Shown in pieces: positions 5,927-64,000 of a DNA stretch of 64,000 nucleotides. The stretch is from Verrucomicrobiota bacterium (GTDB lineage Bacteria > Verrucomicrobiota > Verrucomicrobiia > Limisphaerales > Palsa-1400), in assembly GCA_049510745.1 (NCBI GenBank), contig JBEKYR010000009.1, positions 83,487 through 147,486 of the forward strand, given 5' to 3'. Under the pieces are notes generated by a model. It saw nothing but the letters and a program-made list of their open reading frames with translations, was not told the origin of the DNA and made no database searches. The position numbers were made by a program, and so were the translations under genes. Positions within the stretch are counted from its first letter, which is position 1. Each line of letters starts with the position of its first letter.

Positions 5927-7618
5927 ATGAACACATCGCCAGAATCTGAATTGGACCTCGAAAAGCTCTTTCTCCCGGCTTGGGCGCAAGACTCCTCCAA
6001 GGTCAACCGCTATGCCAACTTCGCGGGGGACGACCGGCGCGAACGCTCCTTCGACGACCGCAGAGGCGCCCGCCCGCCCCGCCGCGACAGGCCCGCAGGC
6101 CCGAGACCCAGAGGCCCCCGCCCCGAGGGCGCCGCCCAGGGAAGACGCCGCCCCGAAGCGGCCGGCCCGGCCGAACAGGCTCCCAGGCGCGAACCGCCGC
6201 CTCCGCCCCCCGATATCGCCGTCGTTCTCCTTCCGGACGACAAGGGCGTGGAATCGCTCGCCCGCCAGATTCGCGTGACGGGCCGCGCCTATCCTCTATT
6301 TGACATCGCCCAATTGATTTTGCAGAGACCGGAGCGCCAGCAGGTCCGCTTCGAGGTCAAGAAGAACGCGGAGGGCAAGCCCCTCCAGCCCCTCTTCCTT
6401 TGCGCCCTGGACGACACCCTCTGGCTCTCCGAGGACGAGGCCGTGGCTCATATCCTGGCCCGCCATTTCGACACCTTCTACCAGGCCGAACGGACGGCGA
6501 CCGAGCCGCCGCGGGGAACCTACACCTTCGTCGCCCAATGCGGCCTCAGCGGGGCGATCCTGGGTCCCCCCAACTACCACGATTACCAGAATCAATTGCG
6601 CAAACTCCACGCCGAACGATTCTCCCGCATGCCTTTCGAGGCCTTCAAGGCCCGCGTCAAGATCGTCAAGGACGAGGCCGTCGTCAAAAAATGGATCGAA
6701 GATCACAGCTTCAAGACCGAATACAACTGCCTCAACGTGCCCGAACCGCGCCGCCTGGCCAACCGCGAGGAGTTGGAACGCCATTTCCGCGAAGTCCACC
6801 TCCCCAACGTCGTCAAATCGGTCGATTCCCACACCCTCAGCGGCGCCGCCGCCCGCCAACTCCGCTCGCCCGGTTTGCAGCGCGCCTTGCGCCTCGTCTC
6901 CGAGGACCAGCGCCGCTTCCCCTTGCAGGTCGCCACCGTTTTGAGCCAGCAATTCGCCTCCTACGGTTTGCAGTTCTTCAAGGTCAACCGCACCGTCACC
7001 CATGTCTCGGTCGCCCGGCCCCGCTTTTTGGACCTCGACGCCACCCCGGCTTCCGAAGGTGTCAAGCGCATTGTTCAATTCATCAACGCCCACCCCAAAT
7101 GCACCCGCCGCATGTTGCTCGACACCCTGGCCCCTTCACCCGCCCCCGCCGCCGCGCCACCTGCCCCGGCCGGCGCCCCGGCCGGCGCTCCGGCTGACGC
7201 CCCAACTCCGCCGCCCGCCCCCGAAGCCGCGCCGGAACAAACCGCGCTGGCCAGCGATTTGCATTGGCTCGTTCACGAAGGTCACGTCATCGAGTTTGCC
7301 AACGGCACCCTGGAAACCGCCAAACGGCCCGTTCCCAGGCCGCCCAAGCCGGACAAGAAACCCGAAGCAGCCCCCGCCACGGACGCCGCTCCCGCCAGCG
7401 CCGAAGCGCCCGCGGAAACTCCGGCGGCCAGCGCCCTTGAAACCGCTCCGCCCGCTCCGCCCGCAACCGCCGCAGAAGCCGCTCCCGTCGGCGCCGAAGC
7501 TCCCGCGGAAGCTCCGGCGGCCAGCGCCCTTGAAAGCGCGCCGCCCGCTCCGCCCGCAACCGCCGCCGACTCCCCCGCGCCGCCGGCGCCCGGCCCCGCC
7601 CCGGAAACCGGCGCCTGA
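5927..7618 (+). CDS. Hypothetical protein with Arg-rich N-terminus and Pro/Ala-rich tail
   Basis: Long ORF with host-like GC3 bias; globular core flanked by low-complexity regions. Confidence 0.75.
   Translation: MNTSPESELDLEKLFLPAWAQDSSKVNRYANFAGDDRRERSFDDRRGARPPRRDRPAGPRPRGPRPEGAAQGRRRPEAAGPAEQAPRREPPPPPPDIAVVLLPDDKGVESLARQIRVTGRAYPLFDIAQLILQRPERQQVRFEVKKNAEGKPLQPLFLCALDDTLWLSEDEAVAHILARHFDTFYQAERTATEPPRGTYTFVAQCGLSGAILGPPNYHDYQNQLRKLHAERFSRMPFEAFKARVKIVKDEAVVKKWIEDHSFKTEYNCLNVPEPRRLANREELERHFREVHLPNVVKSVDSHTLSGAAARQLRSPGLQRALRLVSEDQRRFPLQVATVLSQQFASYGLQFFKVNRTVTHVSVARPRFLDLDATPASEGVKRIVQFINAHPKCTRRMLLDTLAPSPAPAAAPPAPAGAPAGAPADAPTPPPAPEAAPEQTALASDLHWLVHEGHVIEFANGTLETAKRPVPRPPKPDKKPEAAPATDAAPASAEAPAETPAASALETAPPAPPATAAEAAPVGAEAPAEAPAASALESAPPAPPATAADSPAPPAPGPAPETGA
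7385..7570 (+). repeat. Intragenic 93-bp tandem duplication (31-aa Pro/Ala repeat)
   Basis: APASAEAPAETPAASALETAPPAPPATAA followed by APVGAEAPAEAPAASALESAPPAPPATAA. Confidence 0.85.
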
Positions 7619-28408: not shown

Positions 28409-28696
28409 ATCATTGCCGTTGACAACCACCAATTTGACTTCTTGAAAGGGGTCAAGCCCGGAATTCGGAACGGCATTCATAATTGCGACATGGCGGCTCG
28501 GTCGTCCGCCCGCCCTATCTGCCTTTCAATCTCGCCAGACCAGGATCAGCGGCTGGTTTAACCCGCCGGATCGTCTGCAATATACGAAACCGGCTTCTTT
28601 TTTTTGCACTGCCATCCTGGAAAGTTTTGTTTTCCTGACAAGATTTTTTTGCCGCAAAAGAACACAGCGCGGCCAGCCGCAACCAAAAAAGGACGG

Positions 28697-28791
28697 ACAG
28701 CATTAACAGGATTAACAGGATTAACAGGATTAAGAATGGATTCAGAAAAAAGAATTCCCCCCTTCATCCTGTCCATCCTGTTCATCCTGTC
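28697..28791. repeat. Hairpin element built of inverted 9-bp tandem arrays
   Basis: ACAGGATTA-type unit four times (28697-28732) facing YCATCCTGT three times (28764-28791). Confidence 0.85.
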
Positions 28792-29130
28792 AAAACTCTT
28801 TTTCCGCGATCTTCTGATGGATTGCAGTCCAAAGGGCCGCCTTCTTGAGCTTTCGTGTTCCTTGTGCCCTTTTGTGGCAATCACTCCCGGTCCAAAAATT
28901 ATTAACAAAAACACTTGCAATCGCTCAAAACTGTGTCATATTTCCAGCCGTGCGGACACGCGCTGTTTGACATAACGCGGAGTCGCCGGGGAGTCGCCTG
29001 CCCGTCCGCCGCGGGACCAGACTCCGCGCGGCCTTAACCGGCCGCAGGCGCCCCAGCCAGTCAGGAACCTGCGTCACCCGCAGGCCAACGCGCCTTTGCG
29101 CGGCTATCCCGAAAGGGTTTGCCGCGTTGA

Positions 29131-48690: not shown

Positions 48691-48764
48691 GCGGGTGTGG
48701 TTCAATGGTAGAATGCGGGCTTCCCAAGCCTGAGACGAGGGTTCGATTCCCTTCACCCGCTCCA
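48691..48764 (+). tRNA. tRNA-Gly (CCC)
   Basis: Acceptor stem GCGGGTG/CACCCGC, anticodon loop TT-CCC-AA, T-loop GTTCGATTC, discriminator T and encoded CCA. Confidence 0.97.
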
Positions 48765-48829: not shown

Positions 48830-50203
48830 ATGGCGGCAATCAGACAACAGCCGAAGGGAACCCGTCGCAAACCGGCGAGGCGCCCTTCATTCGATGTAAA
48901 ACGCGATTCCGTGCGGGTGCATGTGCGCTTCAGCCCGCAGAAGATCGGTCGTTACTGGTACGAATCTTGGATAGTCGAATATTCCTTCCGCGGCCAGCGA
49001 ATTCGTGAACGGTGCAGCACCGAGCGAAAGGCCAAGACGTGCGCCGATGTCGCAGCCACCAAATTGGCTCACGGCCAGATGGAGGCTCTCGAGCTCCGAG
49101 GTTCTGACCGCCGCATTTATTTGGCGGCTACGGCGCACTTGAGGCCCCTGAAAATTCGCCTTGACGTTGCCGCGCGCGAATATGCGGACGCCAAAAAAAT
49201 AGTCAAGAACGCTGACCTTCGGACGGTGGCTCATTTTTATCAAAAGTTCGGACGCACACAACTCAAGCCCATCACAGTTCCCGAATTGGTTGAAGAAATG
49301 GCAACGGCGCTCGAGCTGGACAAGCGCGGGGATTACCACGTGCGCGATCTGCGGACTCGATTGGGACGATTTGCCAAGGATTTCCCAGGTCAGATCGCGG
49401 AGATCGTGACCGAAGAAATTGAAACGTGGTTACGGCAATTGACATCGTTGGCGAAAGGAACTCGCTGCGGTGGAAAGCCCAAAGGCCGAACAAGGAACAA
49501 CTACCGCAATGCGATTGTCGAGTTGTTTCATTATGCGCGTAAGCACGGTTATTTGCCCAGGGATTTGGCGACAGAGGCCGACGCCGTCAATCGCGTGTCC
49601 GAGGCCGATAAGGCGGAAAATCAGATCTTCGAGCCGGATCAGATGGATGATCTGCTCTCAGAATCACCGGTACATTTGGTGCCTTCAATGGCGATCAAAG
49701 CGTTTAGCGGTGTGCGCACAGAGGAAATCTTCTTAATGGAATGGGAACACGTTCATTTCCGTCGCGGAAAAGGCTACATCATTCTCCCGCGTCCCGTAAC
49801 GAAGAAGAAGCGCCGGCGCATCCTGCCGATTCTGCCCAATCTTCGAAAGTGGATTGCACCGTTTGAAGGGATGAAAGGACGCATTTGCCAGCAGTGGTCA
49901 ACGCCTCAGGGAGTATTCCAAGCATGGGACCGGTTTGCCGCGAAACGGAGTATCAAGGCGGGGGCAAACCGATTTCGCAACAGCTACATTTCGTACAGGG
50001 TCGCTCAAACATCAGATCCCAAGAAGACCGCATTGGAAACGGGCAATTCGGCTGAAGTGATTATGGAGGACTACCTGGAACTGACCACTCCCGAGGACGC
50101 GGCGCGATGGTTCAAGATCACTCCCTCTGCCAATCGTCTTGAGGCTCTCGCGAAACACGCCAACAAACTAAAGCGTGCTCAAGCAGGCACACGCATTGAT
50201 TAA
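48830..50203 (+). CDS. Tyrosine recombinase/integrase
   Basis: FSGVRTEEI (R296), TKKKRRR, NRFRNSYISY (R383) and GNSAEVIMEDY (Y415). Confidence 0.9.
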   Translation: MAAIRQQPKGTRRKPARRPSFDVKRDSVRVHVRFSPQKIGRYWYESWIVEYSFRGQRIRERCSTERKAKTCADVAATKLAHGQMEALELRGSDRRIYLAATAHLRPLKIRLDVAAREYADAKKIVKNADLRTVAHFYQKFGRTQLKPITVPELVEEMATALELDKRGDYHVRDLRTRLGRFAKDFPGQIAEIVTEEIETWLRQLTSLAKGTRCGGKPKGRTRNNYRNAIVELFHYARKHGYLPRDLATEADAVNRVSEADKAENQIFEPDQMDDLLSESPVHLVPSMAIKAFSGVRTEEIFLMEWEHVHFRRGKGYIILPRPVTKKKRRRILPILPNLRKWIAPFEGMKGRICQQWSTPQGVFQAWDRFAAKRSIKAGANRFRNSYISYRVAQTSDPKKTALETGNSAEVIMEDYLELTTPEDAARWFKITPSANRLEALAKHANKLKRAQAGTRID

Positions 50204-50468: not shown

Positions 50469-50558
50469 TTGAACAAAGCCCCTGCGCGGGGACGCAACCC
50501 GCGCAGCCGTTCAAGGGTGGCTGCGCGGGTTGCGTCCCCGCGCAGGGGCTTTGTTCAA
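50469..50558. repeat. Perfect inverted repeat, 40-bp arms, 10-nt spacer
   Basis: TTGAACAAAGCCCCTGCGCGGGGACGCAACCCGCGCAGCC-gttcaagggt-exact reverse complement. Confidence 0.95.
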
Positions 50559-53147: not shown

Positions 53148-54968
53148 ATGCCTATGTTTGACTCAATTGGTAGACCACTTGTTGTGTGGCCCTGTTATGA
53201 ACCCGCTGGAGAGCAGGTTGCGCTCACGGAGAACGAGCTGGTGCGGCATGTCTTGCTGCTGGGTTCCACCGGCTGCGGCAAGTCCACTCTGCTCGCTGCA
53301 GCCATGGGCCAGATCCTGGTCCGTTGCGAGGAGAAGGTGGGCCTTTTGGTGTTGGACGCGAAAGCAGACGGCTTGGCGGATCAAGTCCGGGATGCCGCCT
53401 GGCAGGCTGGCCGGAGCAAGGATGTGATGATCTTTGGTCCGGAGGGAGACCATACCCTGGACCTGTTCGAGCCTTTGGGTTCGCTGCAGGGCGTGGAGGC
53501 CATCACTCGGCGCATCATGCTCGCCGCCGATCCCATGAGCGGCGACAATGCCTACTGGCAGACGACGACGGCCAGCATGTACAGCGCCGCTTTCAGCCTG
53601 TATGCCGCCGCGGGCAAGCCGGTCCATTTCAGCGCCGTGATGGAATTCCTGCGGCGCTGGTTCATGTCGCCCACGACGACGCCGGAAATCCAGGTGCTGA
53701 TTGATCAACTGGAGCGGGATAAGAAGCCGCCGCATCCTTTGGTGACGGGTGCCATCGATCAAGCAAAGTTGTGGCAGGACTTGGATCTGCGCACGCGCAG
53801 CGTTGTGCAGAGTTGTTTGCTCAATGTGCTGCGGCCGTTGCAAAGCGCGGCGGCCGCCAGCACGTTCGCGGCGGCTTCGCGGCGTGGTGGCAACCCAGCC
53901 CAGGCCGCGACCGTGGGAGCCATCTGCGTCGCGTCCGTCAATGCCTTGGCGCATCCGGAGCTGGCACGCTTTCTTTTTCGGCTGGCCAAGCAAGTGTTTT
54001 TTGAAGCCGTCCAGCAGCGGTCGGGTGGCATGCAGCGCCTTTGCGGAATCGTCGCAGATGAGCTGCCCTTGGTAGTCACGCGCGAGGACGCTAGCCAGCT
54101 TGCCACCCTGAGGAGCAAACGTTGTTTTTTCTTGGGGGCCAGCCAGGGCCTTCATGCCCTCGCGGAGCGGATCGGCACGAGTCCTATGCATGCCCTTTTG
54201 ACCAACTTCAACACGACTGTGTTTATGCGCTCGACCGAGGCCGAAACAGCGATTCATGCACAATTGACTTTGGGCACGCGCACCGATGCCGTCAAACGCA
54301 GGCCGGAGAGCGAGGGAGGCGGCCTGGGCTTGCTTCCGCCCTGCTCCAGAGAGCCCATCGAAACCGAGGTGTCCGTCTGCCCAATAGGCGCGCTGGCCAA
54401 ACTGGATACCCATCAGGGATACGTGGCGCGTGCGGATGGCTCTCGCACCTTGCAGCCCGTGTGGTTCGTTCCGTGGTTCGAACAGCCTCTAACAACGTCG
54501 GCCGAAAAGTTCACCTCCGAGCACGTTAAGTCCCTGATGGAACGCGCAGGATTCAAGCTGCGATGCTCGCCCTGCGCCGTGGCCTCAGCGGCCGCCAACA
54601 TGGAGCGGACGGACAACAGAGCACTGCAGGCGGCTGTCGTTTTTTTTCGGGCGAAGGCATGCATGCTTCCACGCGGCCTCGACACATTGCCAACTTGCTG
54701 GCTGCGGGCCATTCCGGGGATTCTGTGGCACATGCGCAAGCCGCACTGGCAGCAACTGCCGTTCTTCATTGATCGGTTGAAGATAATCGATGGCCTGCTC
54801 GTGGTGGGCTTTGCACAAGAGGAGCCGCAATCCTGCTCACGTTTGACTCTCTGGGATCGGATCCGAATTGGCTTGAACGCGAGCCTCTATCCGAGTCCCT
54901 GGCGGGCCATCAAACGGCATCACGCTCTGGCCCTTCAGCGCAACGGCCAAAATCTTGAAATTGGATGA
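53148..54968 (+). CDS. VirD4/TraD/TraG-like P-loop ATPase without TM anchor
   Basis: RHVLLLGSTGCGKST, LVLDAK, IVADE, LRSK...ASQ and NFNTTVFMR motifs. Confidence 0.8.
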   Translation: MPMFDSIGRPLVVWPCYEPAGEQVALTENELVRHVLLLGSTGCGKSTLLAAAMGQILVRCEEKVGLLVLDAKADGLADQVRDAAWQAGRSKDVMIFGPEGDHTLDLFEPLGSLQGVEAITRRIMLAADPMSGDNAYWQTTTASMYSAAFSLYAAAGKPVHFSAVMEFLRRWFMSPTTTPEIQVLIDQLERDKKPPHPLVTGAIDQAKLWQDLDLRTRSVVQSCLLNVLRPLQSAAAASTFAAASRRGGNPAQAATVGAICVASVNALAHPELARFLFRLAKQVFFEAVQQRSGGMQRLCGIVADELPLVVTREDASQLATLRSKRCFFLGASQGLHALAERIGTSPMHALLTNFNTTVFMRSTEAETAIHAQLTLGTRTDAVKRRPESEGGGLGLLPPCSREPIETEVSVCPIGALAKLDTHQGYVARADGSRTLQPVWFVPWFEQPLTTSAEKFTSEHVKSLMERAGFKLRCSPCAVASAAANMERTDNRALQAAVVFFRAKACMLPRGLDTLPTCWLRAIPGILWHMRKPHWQQLPFFIDRLKIIDGLLVVGFAQEEPQSCSRLTLWDRIRIGLNASLYPSPWRAIKRHHALALQRNGQNLEIG

Positions 54969-55745
54969 GCGCTTAACCGCGTTTGAACGGGTTTGAACGT
55001 CGCCACCGCGCCGCTCCGCCTCTCGATTCTCATCGCTGCCTGTTTCAGTCACCCATCTGGTTCTAGGCGCGCCGCACCCTTTCGCCCGCCACGCGCCCTT
55101 CCCGCTTTGGCGGGACCAGAGAATCGTTTGTACCACGCCGCCGCCCATTCAGTCACGGATGGTTATCCAGGTCGGTGTCGCGCACCACCCGGATCCCAGA
55201 CCCTTGCGAGCTGACGACGGGAGCAGACCATCTCGGGCTTGACGCCCAAATCTTAATCCCCCAACAACTAGCCTTTCTTTTTGCCAAGCTTTTTCTTTGG
55301 GCAATGCCAAAGAAAAAGCGGCCTCGCCTACGCTAAGGCAGTGGCTGCCGCTGCCAACCAGTCCTGCGCTTATACCAGACCCTTTCCAGGCTCGCGGCAG
55401 CCTCCGCCAATTATCCAAAGAGCATCGTCTCATCAAATTCCTTGCCCCGCATCACGTGCCAAGCGGCCTTGGCCAATTGAGCGCGGCCCCGTTGAAGCAA
55501 CGCTAATCCTTCCGAGCGGCAACCAAGTACCATTCTCCTGCCCCTGAAATTACAAGGCCGAGCTAATAGATTGCAGGTAAGCCGTCGTTTAACGTTCCAA
55601 CGTTCGGTTCGAGGTGAACCGTAAAATGTAAAACGTATGAACGGAACTAAAATGGATGAACTCACGCGAGAGACGACTAAGGCCGTTATCCCGTTTGCAA
55701 CAACAGCCTGAAGACAGCACCACTCACTGGAAGGAGGTGAGAAAA

Positions 55746-55838
55746 ATGCGCACAAAAGATGACCTGGACAACTATGCGAATCAGTTGAATCCAAACAACG
55801 ACGAGTATTGGCATAGCCGCGGCGAGGAAAAGCCGTAA
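55746..55838 (+). CDS. 30-aa micro-protein with NQLNPNN motif
   Basis: Strong SD AAGGAGGTGA 5 nt upstream; MRTKDDLDNYANQLNPNNDEYWHSRGEEKP; hairpin downstream. Confidence 0.7.
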   Translation: MRTKDDLDNYANQLNPNNDEYWHSRGEEKP

Positions 55839-55845
55839 ACTGAAA

Positions 55846-56997
55846 TCAAGGCTGGCGGGAGAAGAACCCGCCAGCCCCTTCCTTCTTGCGGGCTTTCCGG
55901 GCGATTTTTAGGTGGAGGAAAAAACGTCGGTAGTACCGTTGGATTCGCGCGGTATCGTTGTTGAATCCAGCAGCGATCTGCTTGAAGTGATTTTCCAACC
56001 AAAAGGTAATCATCCACGACAAGAGGCAAAAATCCCCTGTCTCCTCGCGTTGATCCAAGGGCAGCTCGCTGCGCTTTGAAATGATTTGCCATGAGCGCCG
56101 GACATTCTTGACGGATGGCCGTTTCTTTCCACTTGTCCAGCAGCTGACCTCCACTGCCTTCGCGTTAATCTCTGACAGAGCAGGGCCATCGCCGTCCAGT
56201 AGCAGCCTGGCCCATTTGCGGCGGGAGCTTTTGCCTGTCCGTTTAATCGCTCCTGCTGATTGCATGGCGTGTTCGAGCCAGACCTTTCGAAATGTTAGTG
56301 GTTCCGGATTTATGACAATCGCGGTGATGTGCTTCTCGATCGACAACCAGAATGGGGCGTGGTGCGATGAAGCGGCACATTCTTCCAGGACTGCCAGTGC
56401 CATCAACGGGCGGTCAAACAGTTGACGGATTAAATGGATCATCTGAATTTTATCCATGGTCGGCCTTCTCGATCTAAGAAAGCGCAGGCGTTGAGGTTCG
56501 GCGAACCGATACGGACTACCAGGAGCGAGCAACGCGTTCCTCCACGCCGTCAGAAGCTCTTCCTGACCGACGAGCACACCACCGTGACGTGGCCATATTG
56601 CTTCCTCTTGAATCAAAAAATCAGCTGCCGGCTTGAGTTCGTGAAGTGGCGGCTGAAGACGTGGATAGTTTGCGCAAATTTGAAAGAACCGCTTCCATGA
56701 GCGGTCCGTGCGGTAACTTCGCCCTTCGGCGATTGTGCCCTTGATCCTTGCCTTCCACGCGTCGAGTTCCTTTTTGGAGCTGGGGTGTGGTTGGTACAGT
56801 AATTCGTTCTCCGGGATACTTGTGCTCCAATTCCGCCCGCGACATTCCTTCCTTGTCGGAAAATAGACTGGCCAATGTTCTTCGATGGATTGCGCGATGC
56901 GCTTCGAGAGCGGGCAACGAAGGTGCTTCGGATAGAACAGATCCCGAAAAGAAGGGTCGTTCTTTTCGAGTATGGCAATAAGTTGCCAGGGATTCAT
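55846..56997 (-). CDS. Hypothetical protein, possible XRE-like HTH near the C-terminus
   Basis: 383-aa ORF; EVSCWTSGKKRPS resembles an XRE recognition helix. Confidence 0.6.
   Translation of the reverse strand: MNPWQLIAILEKNDPSFRDLFYPKHLRCPLSKRIAQSIEEHWPVYFPTRKECRGRNWSTSIPENELLYQPHPSSKKELDAWKARIKGTIAEGRSYRTDRSWKRFFQICANYPRLQPPLHELKPAADFLIQEEAIWPRHGGVLVGQEELLTAWRNALLAPGSPYRFAEPQRLRFLRSRRPTMDKIQMIHLIRQLFDRPLMALAVLEECAASSHHAPFWLSIEKHITAIVINPEPLTFRKVWLEHAMQSAGAIKRTGKSSRRKWARLLLDGDGPALSEINAKAVEVSCWTSGKKRPSVKNVRRSWQIISKRSELPLDQREETGDFCLLSWMITFWLENHFKQIAAGFNNDTARIQRYYRRFFLHLKIARKARKKEGAGGFFSRQP
55850..55876. terminator. Hairpin between convergent genes, possible terminator
   Basis: GGCTGGCGGG-agaagaa-CCCGCCAGCC, 10-bp stem. 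Confidence 0.5.
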
Positions 56998-57092
56998 GGC
57001 GAGGTGGTTCCTTTGCGATCATCGCACAAATTGTGCCGCCGTGTCCATCGACGAACGGCACCGCAATGTCAACGGAACTATGTGAATGGCGA

Positions 57093-57809
57093 TCAATTGA
57101 GTATTTTCCAGACCGGATTGGTTACCTGGGTCTTTGCAGCTTTTCGGAACTCCTTCCTTTTGGTGTAACGGCGTGGCCGAATCGAGCGTTCTTTTTTCCA
57201 CTCCGCCAAGCGCGTGTACACCGTGCGCAACGGCATCTTGATGCGGAATTCTGATTTCAGTGCTTTCTGTGCTTCCGCTGCTGACGGAGGTTTCCCAGTG
57301 AGTTCGTGTTCCTGGTTACACCACTTGAAAAAGGAGGGCTTCAATCGGCGCAGTTCTAAAATGCTGCCCTTTCGCGTATGCGAGAGAGTTCGCTTGAGTT
57401 TTCCTTGGCTCAGATATTCCGCGTCCAACCTTAAGCGGCCGTAAGGCACGCCGCAATCGGTGGAGACGGTGCTCATGGTCACCACCTCAGTTCCTATTTT
57501 TTTCAGGGCCGTGGTCCTTCTGGGGCCAAGTTGGCGTGCGCAAGCCTCAATTTCCGCAATTTGCGCCTTTGTCCACCGGTATCTTCGGTGATTCCCTTTT
57601 GCCCGTTTATCACGCAACGGCAGCCAATACCCCAGCCTCTTGCAACAGCGTCTTGCGGTGCGATTGGAGATTGGGCCTCCTACTCTCCCTGGGGCAGCAA
57701 ACCACCGGATGACCCCTTCAATCGACCTCACCAATCGCGCATCCAGCTGAAGTTTTAGTTGGTCCAGCCGCTCTTCCGTTATTTCCCTCGGTCTTCCGCG
57801 AATGGTCAT
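57093..57809 (-). CDS. Basic multi-HTH protein with IS630-like HTH motifs and no DDE domain
   Basis: GRPREITEERLDQL...ISNRTARRCCKRLGY and EAQKALKSEFRIKMPLRTVYTRL; start trimmed to ATG 57809. Confidence 0.55.
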   Translation of the reverse strand: MTIRGRPREITEERLDQLKLQLDARLVRSIEGVIRWFAAPGRVGGPISNRTARRCCKRLGYWLPLRDKRAKGNHRRYRWTKAQIAEIEACARQLGPRRTTALKKIGTEVVTMSTVSTDCGVPYGRLRLDAEYLSQGKLKRTLSHTRKGSILELRRLKPSFFKWCNQEHELTGKPPSAAEAQKALKSEFRIKMPLRTVYTRLAEWKKERSIRPRRYTKRKEFRKAAKTQVTNPVWKILN

Positions 57810-57957
57810 ACCGGGCTTCTGCCTTCGTAAGTTGTTCGTTATCAATATCACACCGCTCTTGGGTGAAGCGGAGCGGCTCCAGCCAAAATATACGCCAAAG
57901 CGCGATTTAAGTCCAATATTAATAGCGAGGAAAATTGTGCCCACGGGAAAATGAGGT

Positions 57958-58251
57958 GTGAAAAAGCTTCGCCAGGTGGGTGCAAGGGGGAGTCGGGGTC
58001 AGCGACGGTGGCAAAGATCTGCCATCGAAACTGAGGGGCAAAAGTGGCTGACCCGCGAGCAGATGTCCGTTCGATTGGGTGTCTGTATCCGTACGATAGA
58101 CCACTGGGTGGAAGAAGGGACTTTACCCTGCTTCAAGCACGGGGGCGTCGTGAGGTTTGACCCCGATGACTGTGACGCAGCTCTGCGAAAGTTCTATCGC
58201 CGGTCGCGCTGGCAATCGGAGGACGAAAACCAGGAGGAGACCTCGTTATGA
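57958..58251 (+). CDS. Excisionase-like HTH_17 protein
   Basis: WLTREQMSVRLGVCIRTIDHWVEEGTLPCFKHGGVVRFD. Confidence 0.85.
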   Translation: MKKLRQVGARGSRGQRRWQRSAIETEGQKWLTREQMSVRLGVCIRTIDHWVEEGTLPCFKHGGVVRFDPDDCDAALRKFYRRSRWQSEDENQEETSL

Positions 58252-58462
58252 CACCGTTCCTCGCAATGCCGTTTCCTTGCCTGGCTCCCGCGTTGCGGTT
58301 GGCCCGGCTGGGCTCATGCGACGGCCATGTTCTTAGCGCAGAGGGGATGCCGCCGGACAGGATTTCCCCGCTGGCCGTCATTTCCCCGGGCGTCGCTTCT
58401 GTCAAGTGTAAAACAACTACGCCGAACAAGAATCAAGTATCGATAGCAAAATGAATTGACCC

Positions 58463-61400
58463 ATGGAGCCGACCCCACAACCTCAGCCGAGTCCGGGCCA
58501 GAACGGCGATGGCCAAGGTCAGAATTCAAAGGCCGGCGGCATAGTCTATAAGGGGAGGTTCCTGCAGATTTACCATTCGATTGAACCGGAAGGCGCGGAC
58601 AGTTATGCCCTATGGGGCCAGTTGCCGGTTTTCAACGGAGTGCCGCCCAAGGATCTTGAAGCGCTGCTGGTGCCGGGCAAGACGCCGGATGTTTGGGGAC
58701 AGGTCTTTAAAACTCTGGAGGAGGCGAAGTACAAGCTCGAAAGAATTGAGGCCAATTACCCCAGCCCTGCCCTGGGACGGACGACTCTAACAATCATGAC
58801 CGAAGCGGAGCAGCGCGGCGCCGAAGACTTGGTGCTTAACCTGAGAAAGCTGGCGCCTGATCATCCCGACTATATCGGCGAAGCGAAGGACCTTTTCCTG
58901 AAGATTCATGCAAACCAATTGGATCCCATGTGGTGCCAGGAATTCATTGGTATCATGATCAAGGACCTAGGGCCAACCGTACGCGAAGGTCGCCCCACCA
59001 AGTGGCGGTGGGCAATCAACGTCGTTTGCGGCGAATACGGTATACCCACCGGCGACTTTGACCGCAACGGGGAGCCTGTCAAAGATATGCCTTTGGGGGC
59101 CATAACCACGCCAAATCTGCTGGTCCTTAAGGAAAAGTTGCCTCGGAATGCGGCGCGTGCATTATTCCCGATTCTGCGGTTCGAGTTGGACTACGCTGTC
59201 AATAAAAAGTATCTTCGCGAGAACCCAGCCAAGGACATCGCGATACCGGAGCTGCGCGCGGAAAAGGACGCGATGGCGGACAAGGAGGTTGTGGTGGACT
59301 TTCCCGCCCAGGTCCAGATCGCCTTTAACTTGGCGGCCCAGCACCGCAACGGTTATTTCCTGCCGCACGTCACTTTCATGTATCAGCCCCACGTGCGGCC
59401 CGACGGCGAACTTCACCGTTTAAACCCGAGCCGGATTTACCTTGACGAACGCTTGGCGAAAATTCACTCCAGCAAGACCGATCATCGGCGGCTGATTCAT
59501 TTGAGCGTGCCCACGTGCCTGATTCTGCAAAAACGTTGGGATGGAAAATCGCTCAAATTCGATGGTTTCAGAACGTTCTTGGCCATGATGCGGGCGGCGC
59601 AGGGATATGAGGTCGGCGAAGTACCAAAATGGTTTGCGCAGCAATTGCCTCCAACGTGGTCGTTTGCGTTGTGGCAAATAATCGATCTGCGCGCCTTTGC
59701 CAGAAAGTTGCAAACCGGAGCAAATCCTGTTTATGCCTGGCTGCGAGACCAAATGGGCGAGGAAATCAAACAACCTTTAGAACGGAATGGTCAAGACCAA
59801 GTGAATGCGCGCGAGTTGCAAACCATGCTCATTGGGAAGCTTAATAAGATCGTCGAGGGACCTTCGCTGATCGATCTGCCGGTTTTCGAGGACACCGAAC
59901 TGACGGCAGAAATCATTGACCTGCAGAAAAAGAATCCCACAGGGGATGAACTGCGGCGGCTCAACCGGATGGTGTTGCCCGAAGCCTGCTGCGAATTGGC
60001 GAGGATACCACGCATGGTTCAGGATATTCCGCGGCATACGGGTCGTTCCGCTTACGCCAAGTTCGAGGAATGGGTTGATGATACTTACGACAGGGAAAAA
60101 ACCCGGCGCGTGTTCAAGGTCTCCTACGACGCCGTGCTTACCCCTAGGCAAACGGCCGCGCTTTATCCAATTCTTCCGGAAGGATTTCCCGTGACCGACG
60201 AAGAGCGGCAAGCCATGTTGGAAGAATTAGCGCGCTTTAATCTATTAAAAGATGCAACCCTCCCGGAGCCTCCTATTGTGCCCACGTATGTCGCCAATAA
60301 ACCGTCAAAAGAGCATCAGATTCCAAAGATTGCCGACGAACTGCTTGAGCGAATGATGTTCAAACAGGGAATGAAAGCCACAGCCAAAGAGCTCGTAATT
60401 TCCGAATTCTGGTTGCGCGCCATCTGCAAAGCGAAGGCTCTTCGCACGCCCCCAGGCGGACGATTCTCCGGGCTCAATCCCGATGACTTCCCGAAACGGC
60501 CGCCCCTGGTAACCCTTTCCAATGCAGATCTTGAAAAATCGATCAAAGACCACCATGGCGTTGCCATGACCGCTCGCGCGCTTGAAATCAATGCCGAAGC
60601 GCTGTTGGCATATTGCATCCTGAACAACATTCGCCTGCCGAGCCGCCGTGAGATTGCGGCATGGACGAATACGTTGCCCAGGGTAACGGAATCGCCCCGG
60701 CAAATCAGGGCGTTGTTGGCCCGGGAACCCGTCGCGGAAGTTGCTAAAAAAGCCGGCCGCAACGTAACGGAGGAACATTTGCGAAAATATTGCCGCCGCC
60801 ACGGCATCGAAATCCCGGAACAACCCTCGGCCGGGCCGGGCGTCGCGGATATCGACGCTGTCAAAACAGCATTTGTCCGGACATTGGCTAGCCGCAACGT
60901 CAGGGATCTCGAGACAGTTGAAATAATCGAACTGTTGCTCAGGCACGCTCCGCACGGCTTAACGGATATGGAGATTATCGAAATCCTGGGGACGCACCAG
61001 GTTCAGATGACACGGCCGATGGTTCAGCACGCCGTCGTTGTGACGAGCCGGGGGCGCCTTCAGCGCTATAACGGCCGGGTGCATCTTCTGGTTCAAGAGG
61101 CAATCCTCGATTTGGACAAGCTAAAGCAAAGCGTCCAGCAGGAACTGCAAAGCCAGAAGCAATGGAATAAGCTGCAGGCCATTCTCTTTGTGCTCAAAGA
61201 GGCGAAGACCGGAATTTCACTTGCGCAGCTGGTGGTCGTGCTTTCCTGGTTTGGGATCGAAATGGCAGTCGAACCGCTTAAAAACGCGCTCCGCCAGTAC
61301 CAGAAACGCGCACTGGTAGAGTTCTACAAGGGGATGGTCACCTTGCCAGAGAACATTCGACCTTGCGCGATCCGGCCGGACGAGACCGAAGCAACTCCAA

Positions 61401-61972
61401 ACCTTGGTGAAATCACCGCCAAGGTCCAGATGGATTACGCGGCGCTGGCAAACAAGCAGTTCACCAACGTCGAAATGATGGACTTTGTTCTGAGCCGGGC
61501 CCCGCAAGGCCTCTGGGTCGACGAATTCCTTGCCATTACTAAATCGTTCGGTGTCGATTTTAAGCGGCATTGCATCCACTCCGTAGTAACCCACGAGGCT
61601 CCAGAAAGATTCAAACGCCAATCCGGCCGTTTGGTACGCGAAAAGGCCGCCCCCACACTCCTCCCCAGGGTAGCGATCCAGACTCTTCAGGCTGTGGTTG
61701 ATCAAGTCCAAGTCTCCCCGGTCGATGAGAATGGCGAGGTGGCCTTGCAGATTCTGATTGACTTTCCCCAGGGGCTTCATCTTAGGGAACTCCATGTGGC
61801 CATAGGATTGGCCGGCCGGCACCCCAATTACGATTCATTTCGCAGAAACTTGCATGTCTACGCCAAACGCAATCGCTGCCTCATAACGGACGCCCGGGTC
61901 ACTTTTGTTGTGTCCAGTCAAACCCAAAACCCGTTGCCGACACAACCATCGCAAGAGGCCATAGCCGCATGA
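58463..61972 (+). CDS. Giant tyrosine recombinase-like protein with inserted domain and tandem HTH/wHTH repeats
   Basis: YLRENPA core-binding motif, VRPDGELHRL (R312), SKT (K338), DIPRHT (R524) and VFKVSY (Y555); about 600-aa repetitive C-terminus. Confidence 0.75.
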   Translation: MEPTPQPQPSPGQNGDGQGQNSKAGGIVYKGRFLQIYHSIEPEGADSYALWGQLPVFNGVPPKDLEALLVPGKTPDVWGQVFKTLEEAKYKLERIEANYPSPALGRTTLTIMTEAEQRGAEDLVLNLRKLAPDHPDYIGEAKDLFLKIHANQLDPMWCQEFIGIMIKDLGPTVREGRPTKWRWAINVVCGEYGIPTGDFDRNGEPVKDMPLGAITTPNLLVLKEKLPRNAARALFPILRFELDYAVNKKYLRENPAKDIAIPELRAEKDAMADKEVVVDFPAQVQIAFNLAAQHRNGYFLPHVTFMYQPHVRPDGELHRLNPSRIYLDERLAKIHSSKTDHRRLIHLSVPTCLILQKRWDGKSLKFDGFRTFLAMMRAAQGYEVGEVPKWFAQQLPPTWSFALWQIIDLRAFARKLQTGANPVYAWLRDQMGEEIKQPLERNGQDQVNARELQTMLIGKLNKIVEGPSLIDLPVFEDTELTAEIIDLQKKNPTGDELRRLNRMVLPEACCELARIPRMVQDIPRHTGRSAYAKFEEWVDDTYDREKTRRVFKVSYDAVLTPRQTAALYPILPEGFPVTDEERQAMLEELARFNLLKDATLPEPPIVPTYVANKPSKEHQIPKIADELLERMMFKQGMKATAKELVISEFWLRAICKAKALRTPPGGRFSGLNPDDFPKRPPLVTLSNADLEKSIKDHHGVAMTARALEINAEALLAYCILNNIRLPSRREIAAWTNTLPRVTESPRQIRALLAREPVAEVAKKAGRNVTEEHLRKYCRRHGIEIPEQPSAGPGVADIDAVKTAFVRTLASRNVRDLETVEIIELLLRHAPHGLTDMEIIEILGTHQVQMTRPMVQHAVVVTSRGRLQRYNGRVHLLVQEAILDLDKLKQSVQQELQSQKQWNKLQAILFVLKEAKTGISLAQLVVVLSWFGIEMAVEPLKNALRQYQKRALVEFYKGMVTLPENIRPCAIRPDETEATPNLGEITAKVQMDYAALANKQFTNVEMMDFVLSRAPQGLWVDEFLAITKSFGVDFKRHCIHSVVTHEAPERFKRQSGRLVREKAAPTLLPRVAIQTLQAVVDQVQVSPVDENGEVALQILIDFPQGLHLRELHVAIGLAGRHPNYDSFRRNLHVYAKRNRCLITDARVTFVVSSQTQNPLPTQPSQEAIAA

Positions 61973-62053
61973 AAGCCGCATGAGGTTGGGCATCTCCGGC
62001 CTCTTCGAGCCTTGAGAACACCAAGCTCTGGATTCCCGGTTGCTGGATCAAAC

Positions 62054-62170
62054 GATGCCGCCTCTGTCCGTTAGTTCACCATTTTCGCCTTCGAACCAAG
62101 GGACATGGACGGTTAAAGGCAGGCCGTGCATGTTCTCTGAGATGGTGAAATAACGGATAGATGCGGCGTT
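62054..62170 (+). ncRNA. Candidate structured RNA or ssDNA hairpin
   Basis: 29-bp outer and 18-bp inner stems; 7 of 11 non-Watson-Crick positions are G.U on the + strand. Confidence 0.45.
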
Positions 62171-62579
62171 TTCGCCGTTGGTGCCATCCTGGCGGGTTGG
62201 CCCCCCTCCAATTAGCCGGCGCCGCGCTGGCGTTGTACTCCTACCTAACCATCGAAGATGTTGGCCATTGCGGCGGGATGTATTAACCTAAGAACGGCAG
62301 TTGAAGTGTAAACCTCTTGGGTTTCCGGATTCATTGATGCCCGGCGCGGCGACGTTTTTCGTGGATTTGGACCGTGGCTAACCTGGCACCCACGCCTGTT
62401 GCCCAAACCAGGCCCGGCAAGCGGCCTCCCGCTTCCGGAAAGGCGTCAAAATCCGCTCCCGAATCCGCTCCCTGCACTGCTGGCTGCTCAACTGCTCCGC
62501 AGCATTCCTGAGTCCGGAAAACCTCGATCCGCCGGCGGCGGCGATCCGACCAGCAGCGGCCGGGCCATCCCGCGCATCG

Positions 62580-62815
62580 AACCGGATCACGCCGACCCGA
62601 TTTACCTTGCCAAACACGGCGCCTTCATCGCCGCGCTGGGAAAGCGTTATGACGGCACTCCGGGCGTGGAATTCCTCGACATCGGTTCCTACGGCATCTG
62701 GGGCGCGTGGCATTCGACCCATCCGGCGCCCGTCGCCGTGCGCAAGCAGACCGTGGACATGTACTTGCAGGCCTTCCCGAAGACTCCCCTCCGGCGGCGG
62801 CGGCGGGCGGTTTAA
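62580..62815 (+). pseudogene. Internal fragment of a DUF4832/GH-A clan glycoside hydrolase
   Basis: DPIYLAKHGAFIAALGKRYDG...DIGSYGIWGAWH...YLQAFPKTPL; both ends missing, expected WGEWH reads WGAWH. Confidence 0.6.
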
Positions 62816-62995
62816 CACCCCCTGCCAGCGTTCGTTGAAGGCCATGGACCCGAATCCGGCTACGCAGCCCTGCCGTTTGGATCCGGTGGAGGTTTCGGAA
62901 TGGATTTACGCTCACCCCTCCTTTTGGATGCGGGATGTTCATGAGTGCCATCCGAAGGAAGACCCCCCGACAGGAGCACCGGGCATTTTGAGGGT

Positions 62996-63037
62996 GTGCA
63001 ATTCTGCGCTTGCACAATTCCTCAAATTAGTTGAGGA
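62996..63037 (+). promoter_or_regulatory. Two inverted repeats upstream of the AbiEi-like gene (putative autoregulatory operator)
   Basis: GTGCAA-N8-TTGCAC and TCCTCAA-N5-TTGAGGA. Confidence 0.45.
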
Positions 63038-63044
63038 TATGTGC

Positions 63045-63641
63045 ATGAATAAAAACGATTCTTTTGCGGCTCTGATGACGGTGGCGCAAGACCAGCAAGG
63101 TTACTTTACCACCAAGCAGGCGATTGAGGCCGGTTACGCGGACAACACGCACCCGTATCACGTCCATGCGGGGAATTGGGAGCGAGTGTACCGGGGTATT
63201 TATCGGATAGCGCATTTTCCGCCGCCAGAGGACGGGGAGATGATGGCCTGGCTGCTTTGGTCACGGGGGCGCGACGAAAAGCCGGTGGCCGCGATGTCGC
63301 ACCAAACCGCCCTCAGCCTGTTCGAGTTGGGAGATTTCAACACGGCCAAAGTCCACATGAGCGTGCCAAAAACATTCCGGCGAAACAGCCCGACTCCCAA
63401 AGCGGTCGTGCTCCACCGCACAACACTGGCACCCGCTGAGGTCACGCAACTGCGCGGCCTGACGGTATGCCGCCCGCTACGGGCGCTGTGCGACCTGGCC
63501 AACGCAAACCCGGATGCCGCCGCCGATCTCCGCCCCATCGCGGTCGAGGCGCGGCGGCGCGGTCTTATCACCGAGCGCGAACTTTCAGGCATGAAAGAGC
63601 GGAAGGATGCGCGGAAAATCGTCGCCACCCTGTTGCCATGA
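63045..63641 (+). CDS. Type IV TA AbiEi family antitoxin
   Basis: AQDQQGYFTTKQA, WERVYRGIYR, SHQTAL..F.L and GLTVCRPLRALCDL motifs; start trimmed. Confidence 0.85.
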   Translation: MNKNDSFAALMTVAQDQQGYFTTKQAIEAGYADNTHPYHVHAGNWERVYRGIYRIAHFPPPEDGEMMAWLLWSRGRDEKPVAAMSHQTALSLFELGDFNTAKVHMSVPKTFRRNSPTPKAVVLHRTTLAPAEVTQLRGLTVCRPLRALCDLANANPDAAADLRPIAVEARRRGLITERELSGMKERKDARKIVATLLP

Positions 63642-63829
63642 GTCGTTACCAAACGCCCCAAAGCACTGCCCGATTCGCCTACGAATATGGTTACAATCAG
63701 GTGTTTGCGGAAGATGCCATGGCGGCCTTGTCGGCGGAAGAGCACATGCTCACCGTTGCCAAGATATTTCCTCGGATTGGCTTGGTGAGAAAAACCGGGG
63801 AAATATTGGCCGATCTGTCGCACGATTGA
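63638..63829 (+). pseudogene. Chimeric remnant: probable AbiEii toxin start fused to an isochorismatase-family C-terminus
   Basis: ATGA overlap with AbiEi; MSRYQTPQ then STARFAYEYGYNQVFAEDAM...IFPRIG. Confidence 0.65.
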
Positions 63830-63967
63830 TTCATTATGGGTTTTCGCTTCAGCCGGCGCGTGAGCATTCTGCCGGGGCTTAACCTAAGTTCCTTTTGATT
63901 TTGCGTAAGTGCTTGCAAATCAAAGCAACGGCCAGAAAATGTAGCAAGTAATAATTGATTAAATCTC

Positions 63968-63996
63968 TTGACATACCTATGGTCCCGCTTTATTCT
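63968..63996 (+). promoter_or_regulatory. Sigma70-type promoter for a gene beyond the window
   Basis: TTGACA-N17-TATTCT. Confidence 0.45.
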
Positions 63997-64000
63997 GTAG

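Follow-up and report, generated by a model that had tools for sequence, protein, structure and literature searches.

The question raised by this locus is what a 117-nt hairpin does beside a giant recombinase-like gene, and whether it would act as duplex DNA, as a folded DNA strand or as RNA. The locus lies in a 64,000-nt stretch of a verrucomicrobial contig (hereafter the window). The hairpin (62054..62170, + strand) starts after an 81-nt gap from the recombinase stop codon; that codon ends at 61972, in agreement with the distance given in the sequence-only reading, which regarded the element as a nucleic acid folded in a single strand and as part of a recombinase-plus-structure module. We propose a joint model, to which we give somewhat less than an even chance: the hairpin would overlap the crossover (att) site of the recombinase and would also form a sense-strand stem-loop in the 3' UTR.

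We folded the element with RNAfold, and both the stem pairing and the small side hairpin that had been proposed were recovered. The outer stem (62054-62082/62142-62170) contains 24 Watson-Crick pairs, 3 G.U pairs and 2 mismatches (C.U at 62062/62162 and G.A at 62074/62150), and the inner stem (62097-62114/62122-62139) contains 12 Watson-Crick pairs, 4 G.U pairs and 2 mismatches (A.C at 62099/62137 and G.G at 62108/62128) around a 7-nt loop. Together with the side hairpin at ~62085-62094 they give the overall shape of a three-way hairpin. The total is 48 pairs, 40 Watson-Crick and 8 G.U, the latter being the seven counted before plus 62083.62141. The single A.C mismatch is the only one that would turn into G.U on the - strand, so that an excess first put at 7 versus 1 now stands at 8 versus 1. 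The minimum free energy of the + strand was -63.1 kcal/mol, as compared with a mean of -33.0 for 200 dinucleotide shuffles (z -8.62; 0 of 200 as good), whereas the - strand reached -46.2 kcal/mol (z -5.00), and mirroring the + structure onto it broke eight pairs. With DNA parameters the strands were close (-34.0 for + versus -30.1 kcal/mol for -). In a 120-nt scan of 54000-64000 (659 windows), the hairpin gave the lowest energy (-61.0, followed by -59.6; median -37.9), and the 64 kb contain 18 local inverted repeats at least 18 nt long, of which its arms form one.

We also compared 17 loci from metagenome and genome scans, in three groups: a window class, comprising L034 and L038, which are identical to the window, and the 97-98% variants L035, L036 and L037; a 41% class (L039, L047, L032 and G023); and a class at 31-34%, here called the 33% class (L033, L040-L046 and L048). 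According to alignment and folds, the three variants keep the hairpin core (62063..62161, + strand) and lose the 8-bp basal helix (62054-62061/62163-62170), because their sequence beyond 62159 differs. In L035 and L037 the kept stem contains four substitutions, all in the 3' arm; three of them turn a Watson-Crick pair into G.U (62125 C>T, 62135 C>T and 62152 A>G), and the fourth (62134 T>G) disrupts a G.U. The 5' arm is identical across the window-class variants. Given the 8 G.U pairs against one A.C, and given that three of the four substitutions retain pairing as G.U, the + (sense) strand looks as if it has been selected for folding, which is what had been claimed for one strand. The 8:1 ratio corresponds to a one-sided p of ~0.02 with a grouping chosen post hoc, and pooling it with the three variant substitutions gives 11:1 and ~p 0.003, which is modest and subject to the same post hoc grouping.

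Next, we consider whether the hairpin belongs to a known family of elements. In its own 5.6-Mb assembly it has one full-length copy, and the 15 other matches are all 24 nt or shorter (E >=0.38); this rules out a MITE or other dispersed repeat, an alternative that the sequence-only reading had itself named. No match was found in plasmid and phage collections, and an Rfam cmscan of 55000-64000 at E up to 1 returned three weak matches, none of them at the hairpin, so that the Rfam comparison suggested earlier assigned it to no family. It might also have no function at all, having arisen by a recent inverted duplication or by decay of a repeat element. The confinement of the long stem to one lineage, described below, is what such an origin would lead one to expect; however, the element is single-copy with a z of -8.6, its 5' arm is identical in the window-class variants, and the substitutions that do occur keep pairing, and we consider this origin very improbable. 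The stem foot of an integron attC site carries the boxes RYYYAAC ... GTTRRRY. The 5' foot of the hairpin, ATCAAAC, agrees with this consensus at 6 of 7 positions, while the 3' foot, GTTTTCG, neither fits GTTRRRY nor complements the 5' foot. Nor is there a cassette array or an IntI-type integrase, the element being single-copy and its 1169-aa neighbour giving no Phage_integrase match in Pfam.

That neighbour, encoded at 58463..61972 (+ strand), was examined by ORF analysis, Foldseek and conserved residues, and is tyrosine-recombinase-like, as had been read from the letters, with helix-turn-helix and winged-helix repeats at its C terminus. Searches against Pfam, NCBIfam, PHROG and PADLOC placed it in no family at threshold, and the family profile gave weak matches to an integrase core-binding domain (E 0.038) and to XerA (E 0.17). 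An AlphaFold model obtained from 11 family members (mean pLDDT 73) matched XerD, lambda Int, XerA and Tn1549 Int with a Foldseek probability of 1.00, the range over XerD, lambda Int, XerA, Brujita Int and Tn1549 Int being 0.90-1.00, and its tail matched the tandem winged helices of SelB (Foldseek ranks 4, 34 and 48). The residues R312, E316, K338, R524, H525 and Y555 are near-invariant among the 11 members, and the usual His before R524 is replaced by Asp in the three sequences of A1. The predicted structure combines the catalytic fold with the R..K..(H)xxR..Y signature (R312, K338, R524 and Y555), and by its modelled fold and the catalytic-type residues kept, the protein is a divergent tyrosine recombinase. 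The recombinase reading frame stays open for 33 codons beyond its TGA (61973-62074), until a TAG within the 5' arm of the hairpin, which is probably chance.

The recombinase family is rare, with members of 1000-1300 aa, and was seen here solely in one verrucomicrobial family from peat. A word-indexed protein search returned a single full-length relative, and 12 representatives were found at E <=1e-30 among 1.84 billion proteins. Three of 60 related genomes contain the recombinase beyond a common insert domain, its C-terminal 650 aa occur in 0 of 400 other genomes of the phylum, and no homologue was found in viral contigs or in plasmids and phages. The insert domain just mentioned lies in the catalytic region (59648-60004, residues ~396-514) and is a ~115-aa domain with no Pfam family, shared by many proteins of related genomes that have no other relationship; it accounts for almost every match in 28 of 61 genomes and for the majority of the 243 hits from the 1.84-billion-protein search. 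It is missing in the 33% class, which is also without the conserved non-coding block described below. A protein-atlas search for the insert domain gave scores of 0.77 or lower and no lead.

Is the long hairpin conserved along with the recombinase? In the 41% class, the equivalent stretch folds weakly in L047 (z -1.9) and not at all in L039 (z +1.25), a second folding of the stretch gave z-scores of -1.1 and +0.3, and many outer-stem pairs are broken in the alignment. The apical hairpin (62097..62139, + strand) is the only part with compensatory changes in this class, namely A-U to G-C in two sequences at columns 76/94 and C-G to A-U in one sequence at columns 77/93. In the 33% class no such hairpin is present, the fold at its junction having a z of ~-0.5. 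The proposal of a conserved module of recombinase and structured nucleic acid is therefore not supported, as the stem is weak or absent in one class and absent in the other. The sequence-only reading had stated that a lack of equivalent structures beside homologues would speak against it, and this is in part what we observed. Any RNA role would thus be lineage-specific, if it is real, because the other classes have not kept the long stem. Strong folds at L039 8950-9095 and L047 1085-1230 were also tried as equivalents and were rejected as unrelated REP-like or GC-rich repeats. At L039 8950-9095, a ~37-nt unit that contains a palindrome around CCCTCAATTGAGGG occurs twice in direct orientation and gives a very stable fold, and the window contains a 30-nt relative of this unit at 55474-55503 (93% identical); together they are probably a REP-like dispersed element of these bacteria.

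What is kept across classes is primary sequence. A non-coding block running from the 3' half of the hairpin to ~100 nt downstream of it (62120..62263) shows 79% DNA identity to the flank of L047 and G023, although the proteins are just 41% identical and the recombinase genes of the window and the 41% class can hardly be aligned at the DNA level. Of 31 genomes of the family, two contain the block, each time beside the giant gene, and neither an nhmmer profile nor blastn found it in the 33% class. Beyond the hairpin, in 62171-62263, alifold found no compensatory pair among 23. A small ORF of 41 codons (62161-62286) was considered and rejected as coding, its upstream frame being broken by indels between variants. 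Similar peptides can be read in L035 and L047, and a hand count of codon changes between the window and L035 gave 3 synonymous and 8 non-synonymous, which looks neutral. In sum, the sequence of the 3' arm is conserved and the long stem is not.

The 3' arm is also where related sequences part. In comparisons within all three classes, identity ends after a GGAT(A) motif, and in the window this is GGATA followed by a divergence point between 62159 and 62160 (62155..62160, no strand assigned), which we regard as a candidate crossover. Counted per 40 nt, the window and L035 show 0-3 differences as far as 62119, then 4 in 62120-62159, 12 in 62160-62199, 11 in 62200-62239 and 2 in 62240-62279, and 7 of the 11 bases from 62160 onward differ. 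The comparison with L037 diverges at the same point, inside the 3' arm of the hairpin. L047 and L039, both of the 41% class, match at 98.7% across 768 nt and are unrelated after ...CGGAT, and the nhmmer profile of the block matches L039 at positions 1-42 only. L045 and L043, which represent the 33% class here, have 4.9 kb in common at 87-89% identity and are unrelated after ...GGTGGATA, ~1450 nt past the stop. The junctions of the first two classes are homologous positions of one block and not fully independent, and the 33%-class junction has just GGATA in common with the other two. Divergence rises from ~40 nt ahead of GGATA, so that the boundaries are not razor-sharp; L037 is a mosaic in the alignment, and mosaics formed by homologous exchange of old alleles are a serious alternative source of these boundaries.

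In two genomes, the 41% module (L039 1949-8116) is bordered by different sequences at either end and, judged from these flanks, behaves in the way expected of a mobile unit; one side of L039 leads into the ATPase gene that the window also has, at 98.8% identity. No convincing counterpart of the core emerged at the modules' left ends, and a query for an empty target site with the right flank of L039 returned partial unrelated matches in 2 of 31 genomes. Neither an empty site nor a circular junction turned up among the loci compared. The sequences that follow the junctions in L045 (between 10561 and 10562) and L039 (between 8116 and 8117) are alike, TCGTCCAGCGG and TCCAGCGAG respectively, and this may be a shared target half-site or chance.

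A second inverted repeat, which we call IR-B (62142..62178, no strand assigned), is centred on this junction and is a candidate core-type recombination site. Its arms are ATGGTGAAAT (62142-62151, within the 3' arm of the hairpin) and, facing it, TTTTCGCCGT (62169-62178), and its dyad at ~62160 is the junction position in the window. The corresponding pair in L047 (752-761/777-786) has its dyad at 769, with the junction between 768 and 769, and that in L035 (1429-1438/1456-1465) has its dyad at 1447, on the junction. IR-B is one of just two convergent pairs of the motif in 64 kb, and copies of the motif cluster at 62073, 62082, 62142 and 62169. Read by hand, the 15-nt arms in L047 agree at 12 of 15 positions and enclose a centre of 5-7 nt. 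On the right side of L039 no good half-site was found, and its junction reads as the palindrome GGATATCC. The 15-17 nt between the 10-nt half-sites exceed the canonical 6-8-bp overlap unless the half-sites extend inward. In its layout, IR-B looks like a core-type tyrosine recombinase site. The sequence conservation of the 3' arm and its position on a putative recombination junction point to a DNA site for the enzyme, and for the same reasons the exclusion of a protein-bound duplex repeat in the sequence-only reading was unjustified.

A purely double-stranded reading also has to be weighed. The arms would then be inverted recombinase-binding sites, a core half-site and an accessory copy ~60 bp away, bound as duplex by the multi-HTH recombinase; no strand would fold, and the G.U bias would be chance. 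The conservation of the 3' arm in sequence and not in pairing, the coincidence of the junction with the IR-B dyad, the clustering of the four motif copies and the many predicted DNA-binding domains of the recombinase all fit this picture. On the other hand, eight G.U pairs against one A.C, together with three of four substitutions that maintain + strand pairs, are unexpected for duplex sites, and the interior between the arms is itself a 16-pair hairpin with two compensatory pairs in the 41% class. We consider this reading unlikely.

The DNA-level evidence pointing to a crossover site and the strand bias pointing to sense-strand folding are compatible with each other, and the joint model that we prefer combines them. 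The 3' arm would be the conserved recombinase-side half-site ending in GGATA, after which the neighbours switch (between 62159 and 62160), and the 5' arm would be an inverted copy that spans the left half-site and the centre and takes in 8 nt from the start of the window-type right half. The recombinase may bind ATGGTGAAAT ... TTTTCGCCGT as inverted half-sites and exchange strands in the ~7-nt centre. The site region would be transcribed as the 3' UTR of the recombinase, and the inverted copies would fold in the mRNA; we suggest that they are read there as a stem-loop because pairing is kept only on the sense strand. This stem-loop may serve as a protector of the 3' end or as an RNase III target. 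Since the 8-bp GC-rich base and the U4 would be present only with a window-type right half joined, recombination would change the 3' end of the mRNA, following the logic of lambda sib/tI.

The hairpin may alternatively be a plain 3'-UTR stem-loop with no recombination role, acting as a stabiliser, a weak terminator or a read-through insulator for the downstream defence genes, in which case the junctions would be ordinary mosaic boundaries of a variable defence island. A sense-strand stem 81 nt past the stop with a + bias suits this explanation, as do the strain-variable downstream cargo (AbiGi-like and AbiEi-like genes) and the mosaic L037. So do contigs from two RNA libraries that contain the 3' end of the recombinase (DNA carry-over being possible), one of which is exactly 61781-62039, ending 67 nt beyond the stop, and which also count for the joint model; at a depth of ~3 the contigs, which lack 62040-62500, are uninformative on transcript ends. 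However, a 79% block beside a 41% homologue and breaks after GGAT(A) in three classes would be left unexplained. As an intrinsic terminator, defined as a GC-rich stem followed immediately by a U-rich tail with at least 5 U in 8, the element was rejected: its tail is UUUUCGCC, the U-tract has just 4 U, and the hairpin is absent from the 10 sites listed by a terminator scan of 57800-64000. A plain stem-loop is in our view decidedly unlikely.

The remaining readings make the folded + strand itself, as single-stranded DNA or as RNA, the substrate or partner of the new giant recombinase family, a proposal that we regard as improbable. In it, the SelB-like winged-helix tail would hold a stem containing the post-GGATA crossover point, and the foot of this stem would read the sequence across the junction. 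In the DNA version, the + hairpin would form in replication or transfer and be recombined as a stem, in the style of attC or CTX attP(+). The strand bias, a putative crossover point within the stem, two inverted site copies ~60 nt apart as in the CTX-type layout and an enzyme of the tyrosine recombinase class speak for it. But G.T adds little in DNA, as the DNA energies of -34.0 versus -30.1 kcal/mol indicate; the stem rebuilds just the left half-site and 8 bp of the right; the 41% and 33% classes show no long hairpin; the site is single-copy with no cassette array; and the island has no recognised relaxase or ssDNA-phage genes, only a weak VirD4/HerA-like ATPase. We find single-stranded DNA quite doubtful as the substrate. 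In the RNA version, a free-standing small RNA would serve as scaffold or guide and be held by the winged-helix tail. This would agree with the + strand bias, with the variable nucleotides directly after the end of the conserved scaffold, and with a tail resembling SelB winged-helix domains that bind an RNA hairpin. Against it, a scan found no promoter-like site upstream of the hairpin, Rfam contains no such family, the structure is not conserved in the homologues, and the SelB likeness is generic for tandem winged helices; an RNA partner thus appears extremely improbable.

Comparison with known systems helps to place the element. In phage lambda, sib/tI is a sense-strand hairpin downstream of int and by the crossover site, and recombination alters the 3' end of the int transcript. 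The window hairpin fits in position and strand, being a sense-strand hairpin downstream of a recombinase gene and adjoining a candidate crossover, and its basal helix spans the putative junction and is lost in L035 and L037. Unlike in lambda, where the crossover point lies between int and the hairpin, the one in the window would be inside the stem, and the window recombinase, at 1169 aa, differs from lambda Int in that no arm-binding N-domain was recognised. The core-type att sites of lambda (COC') and of the ends of Tn1549/Tn916 have inverted half-sites around a short centre in which the strands cross, a layout proposed here for IR-B, and as with those the candidate site in the window is near the recombinase gene at what would be an element end, with an excisionase-type HTH gene nearby. 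It differs from them in its longer spacing (15-17 nt between the 10-mers), in the extra inverted copy that produces the 117-nt hairpin, and in having no identified arm-type repeats or matching left end.

Integron attC sites (PMC2727003) are imperfect hairpins with strand-specific folding that are recombined by the tyrosine recombinase IntI, and the window hairpin resembles them in its imperfection and its strand-specific folding. Unlike attC, it is single-copy and without foot boxes, cassette array or IntI-type integrase, and its strand asymmetry as DNA is small. In the forked hairpin of CTX-phage attP(+), inverted site copies anneal in one strand, and the product is used by XerCD. The window likewise has two inverted site copies tens of nt apart that are able to anneal in one strand; by contrast, it has no dif-like sequences or ssDNA-phage genes, and its stem rebuilds no complete core of two half-sites. 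With intrinsic terminators and REP-type 3' stabilisers the hairpin shares a stable sense-strand stem in a 3' UTR, and it differs from them in its length of 117 nt, its U4, its lack of dispersal and the conservation of its 3' arm in sequence across diverged elements. We suggest classifying the feature as an att site that comes with an att-coupled 3'-UTR hairpin and adjoins a member of a new recombinase family.

If the joint model is true, it provides, for the first time, a concrete way into a rare family of giant tyrosine recombinases, in the form of a candidate crossover site whose centre is defined. The arrangement could couple the fate of the recombinase mRNA to the recombination state, which is so far mainly known from phage lambda, and the question of duplex versus folded strand would become directly testable on a 150-bp fragment. 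If instead the folded strand were the substrate or partner, this would be a third independent case of structure-specific tyrosine recombination after attC and CTX attP(+), or the first RNA-assisted one.

Upstream in the window, a tRNA-Gly gene (48691-48764) is followed by an integrase gene (48830-50203; phrog_1, E 7e-15), and G+C falls there from ~0.65 to ~0.55; because of these three features, the region is, on sequence grounds, an integrated island that extends to the contig end, which is also the window end. It carries an exonuclease-like gene (PHROG match), a HerA/VirD4-like ATPase gene (53148-54968, a weak match) and unknown genes, and Pfam and PHROG profile searches recognised no relaxase or ssDNA-phage gene in it. 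Just upstream of the recombinase lies a small gene of the HTH_17 (AlpA/excisionase) type (57958..58251, + strand; PF12728, E 5.1e-08). The 41% homologue also has an upstream HTH_17 ORF, with E 5.8e-4 and 20.5 bits, which is under the Pfam cut-off of 27 bits. Both ORFs count in favour of the joint model. Downstream, an AbiEi-like ORF (62607..63641, + strand) matches AbiEi_4 in Pfam (E 6.5e-09) and AbiEi in PADLOC (E 2.8e-62). Between the recombinase module and this gene lies a strain-variable segment of 240 nt (62288..62527), which in L035 and L036 is replaced by 1305 nt (L035 1576-2880) with an AbiGi-like ORF; the AbiEi-like ORF has 449 aa in these two loci, compared with 344 aa in the window. 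L037 has 39 nt in place of window positions 62249-62530.

Further repeats were observed in the window. A perfect 40-nt palindrome with a 10-nt loop (50469-50558) follows the tRNA-adjacent integrase gene (48830-50203) at a distance of ~265 nt. It occurs once in the genome, has no strand bias and is a second large hairpin after a recombinase gene in the island. At 28685-28802, a cluster of AACAGGATT-type repeats forms inverted repeats of 26-40 nt. Finally, a GC-rich unit of 93 nt occurs in two tandem copies that are 90% identical (7374-7559), and this is probably a coding repeat.
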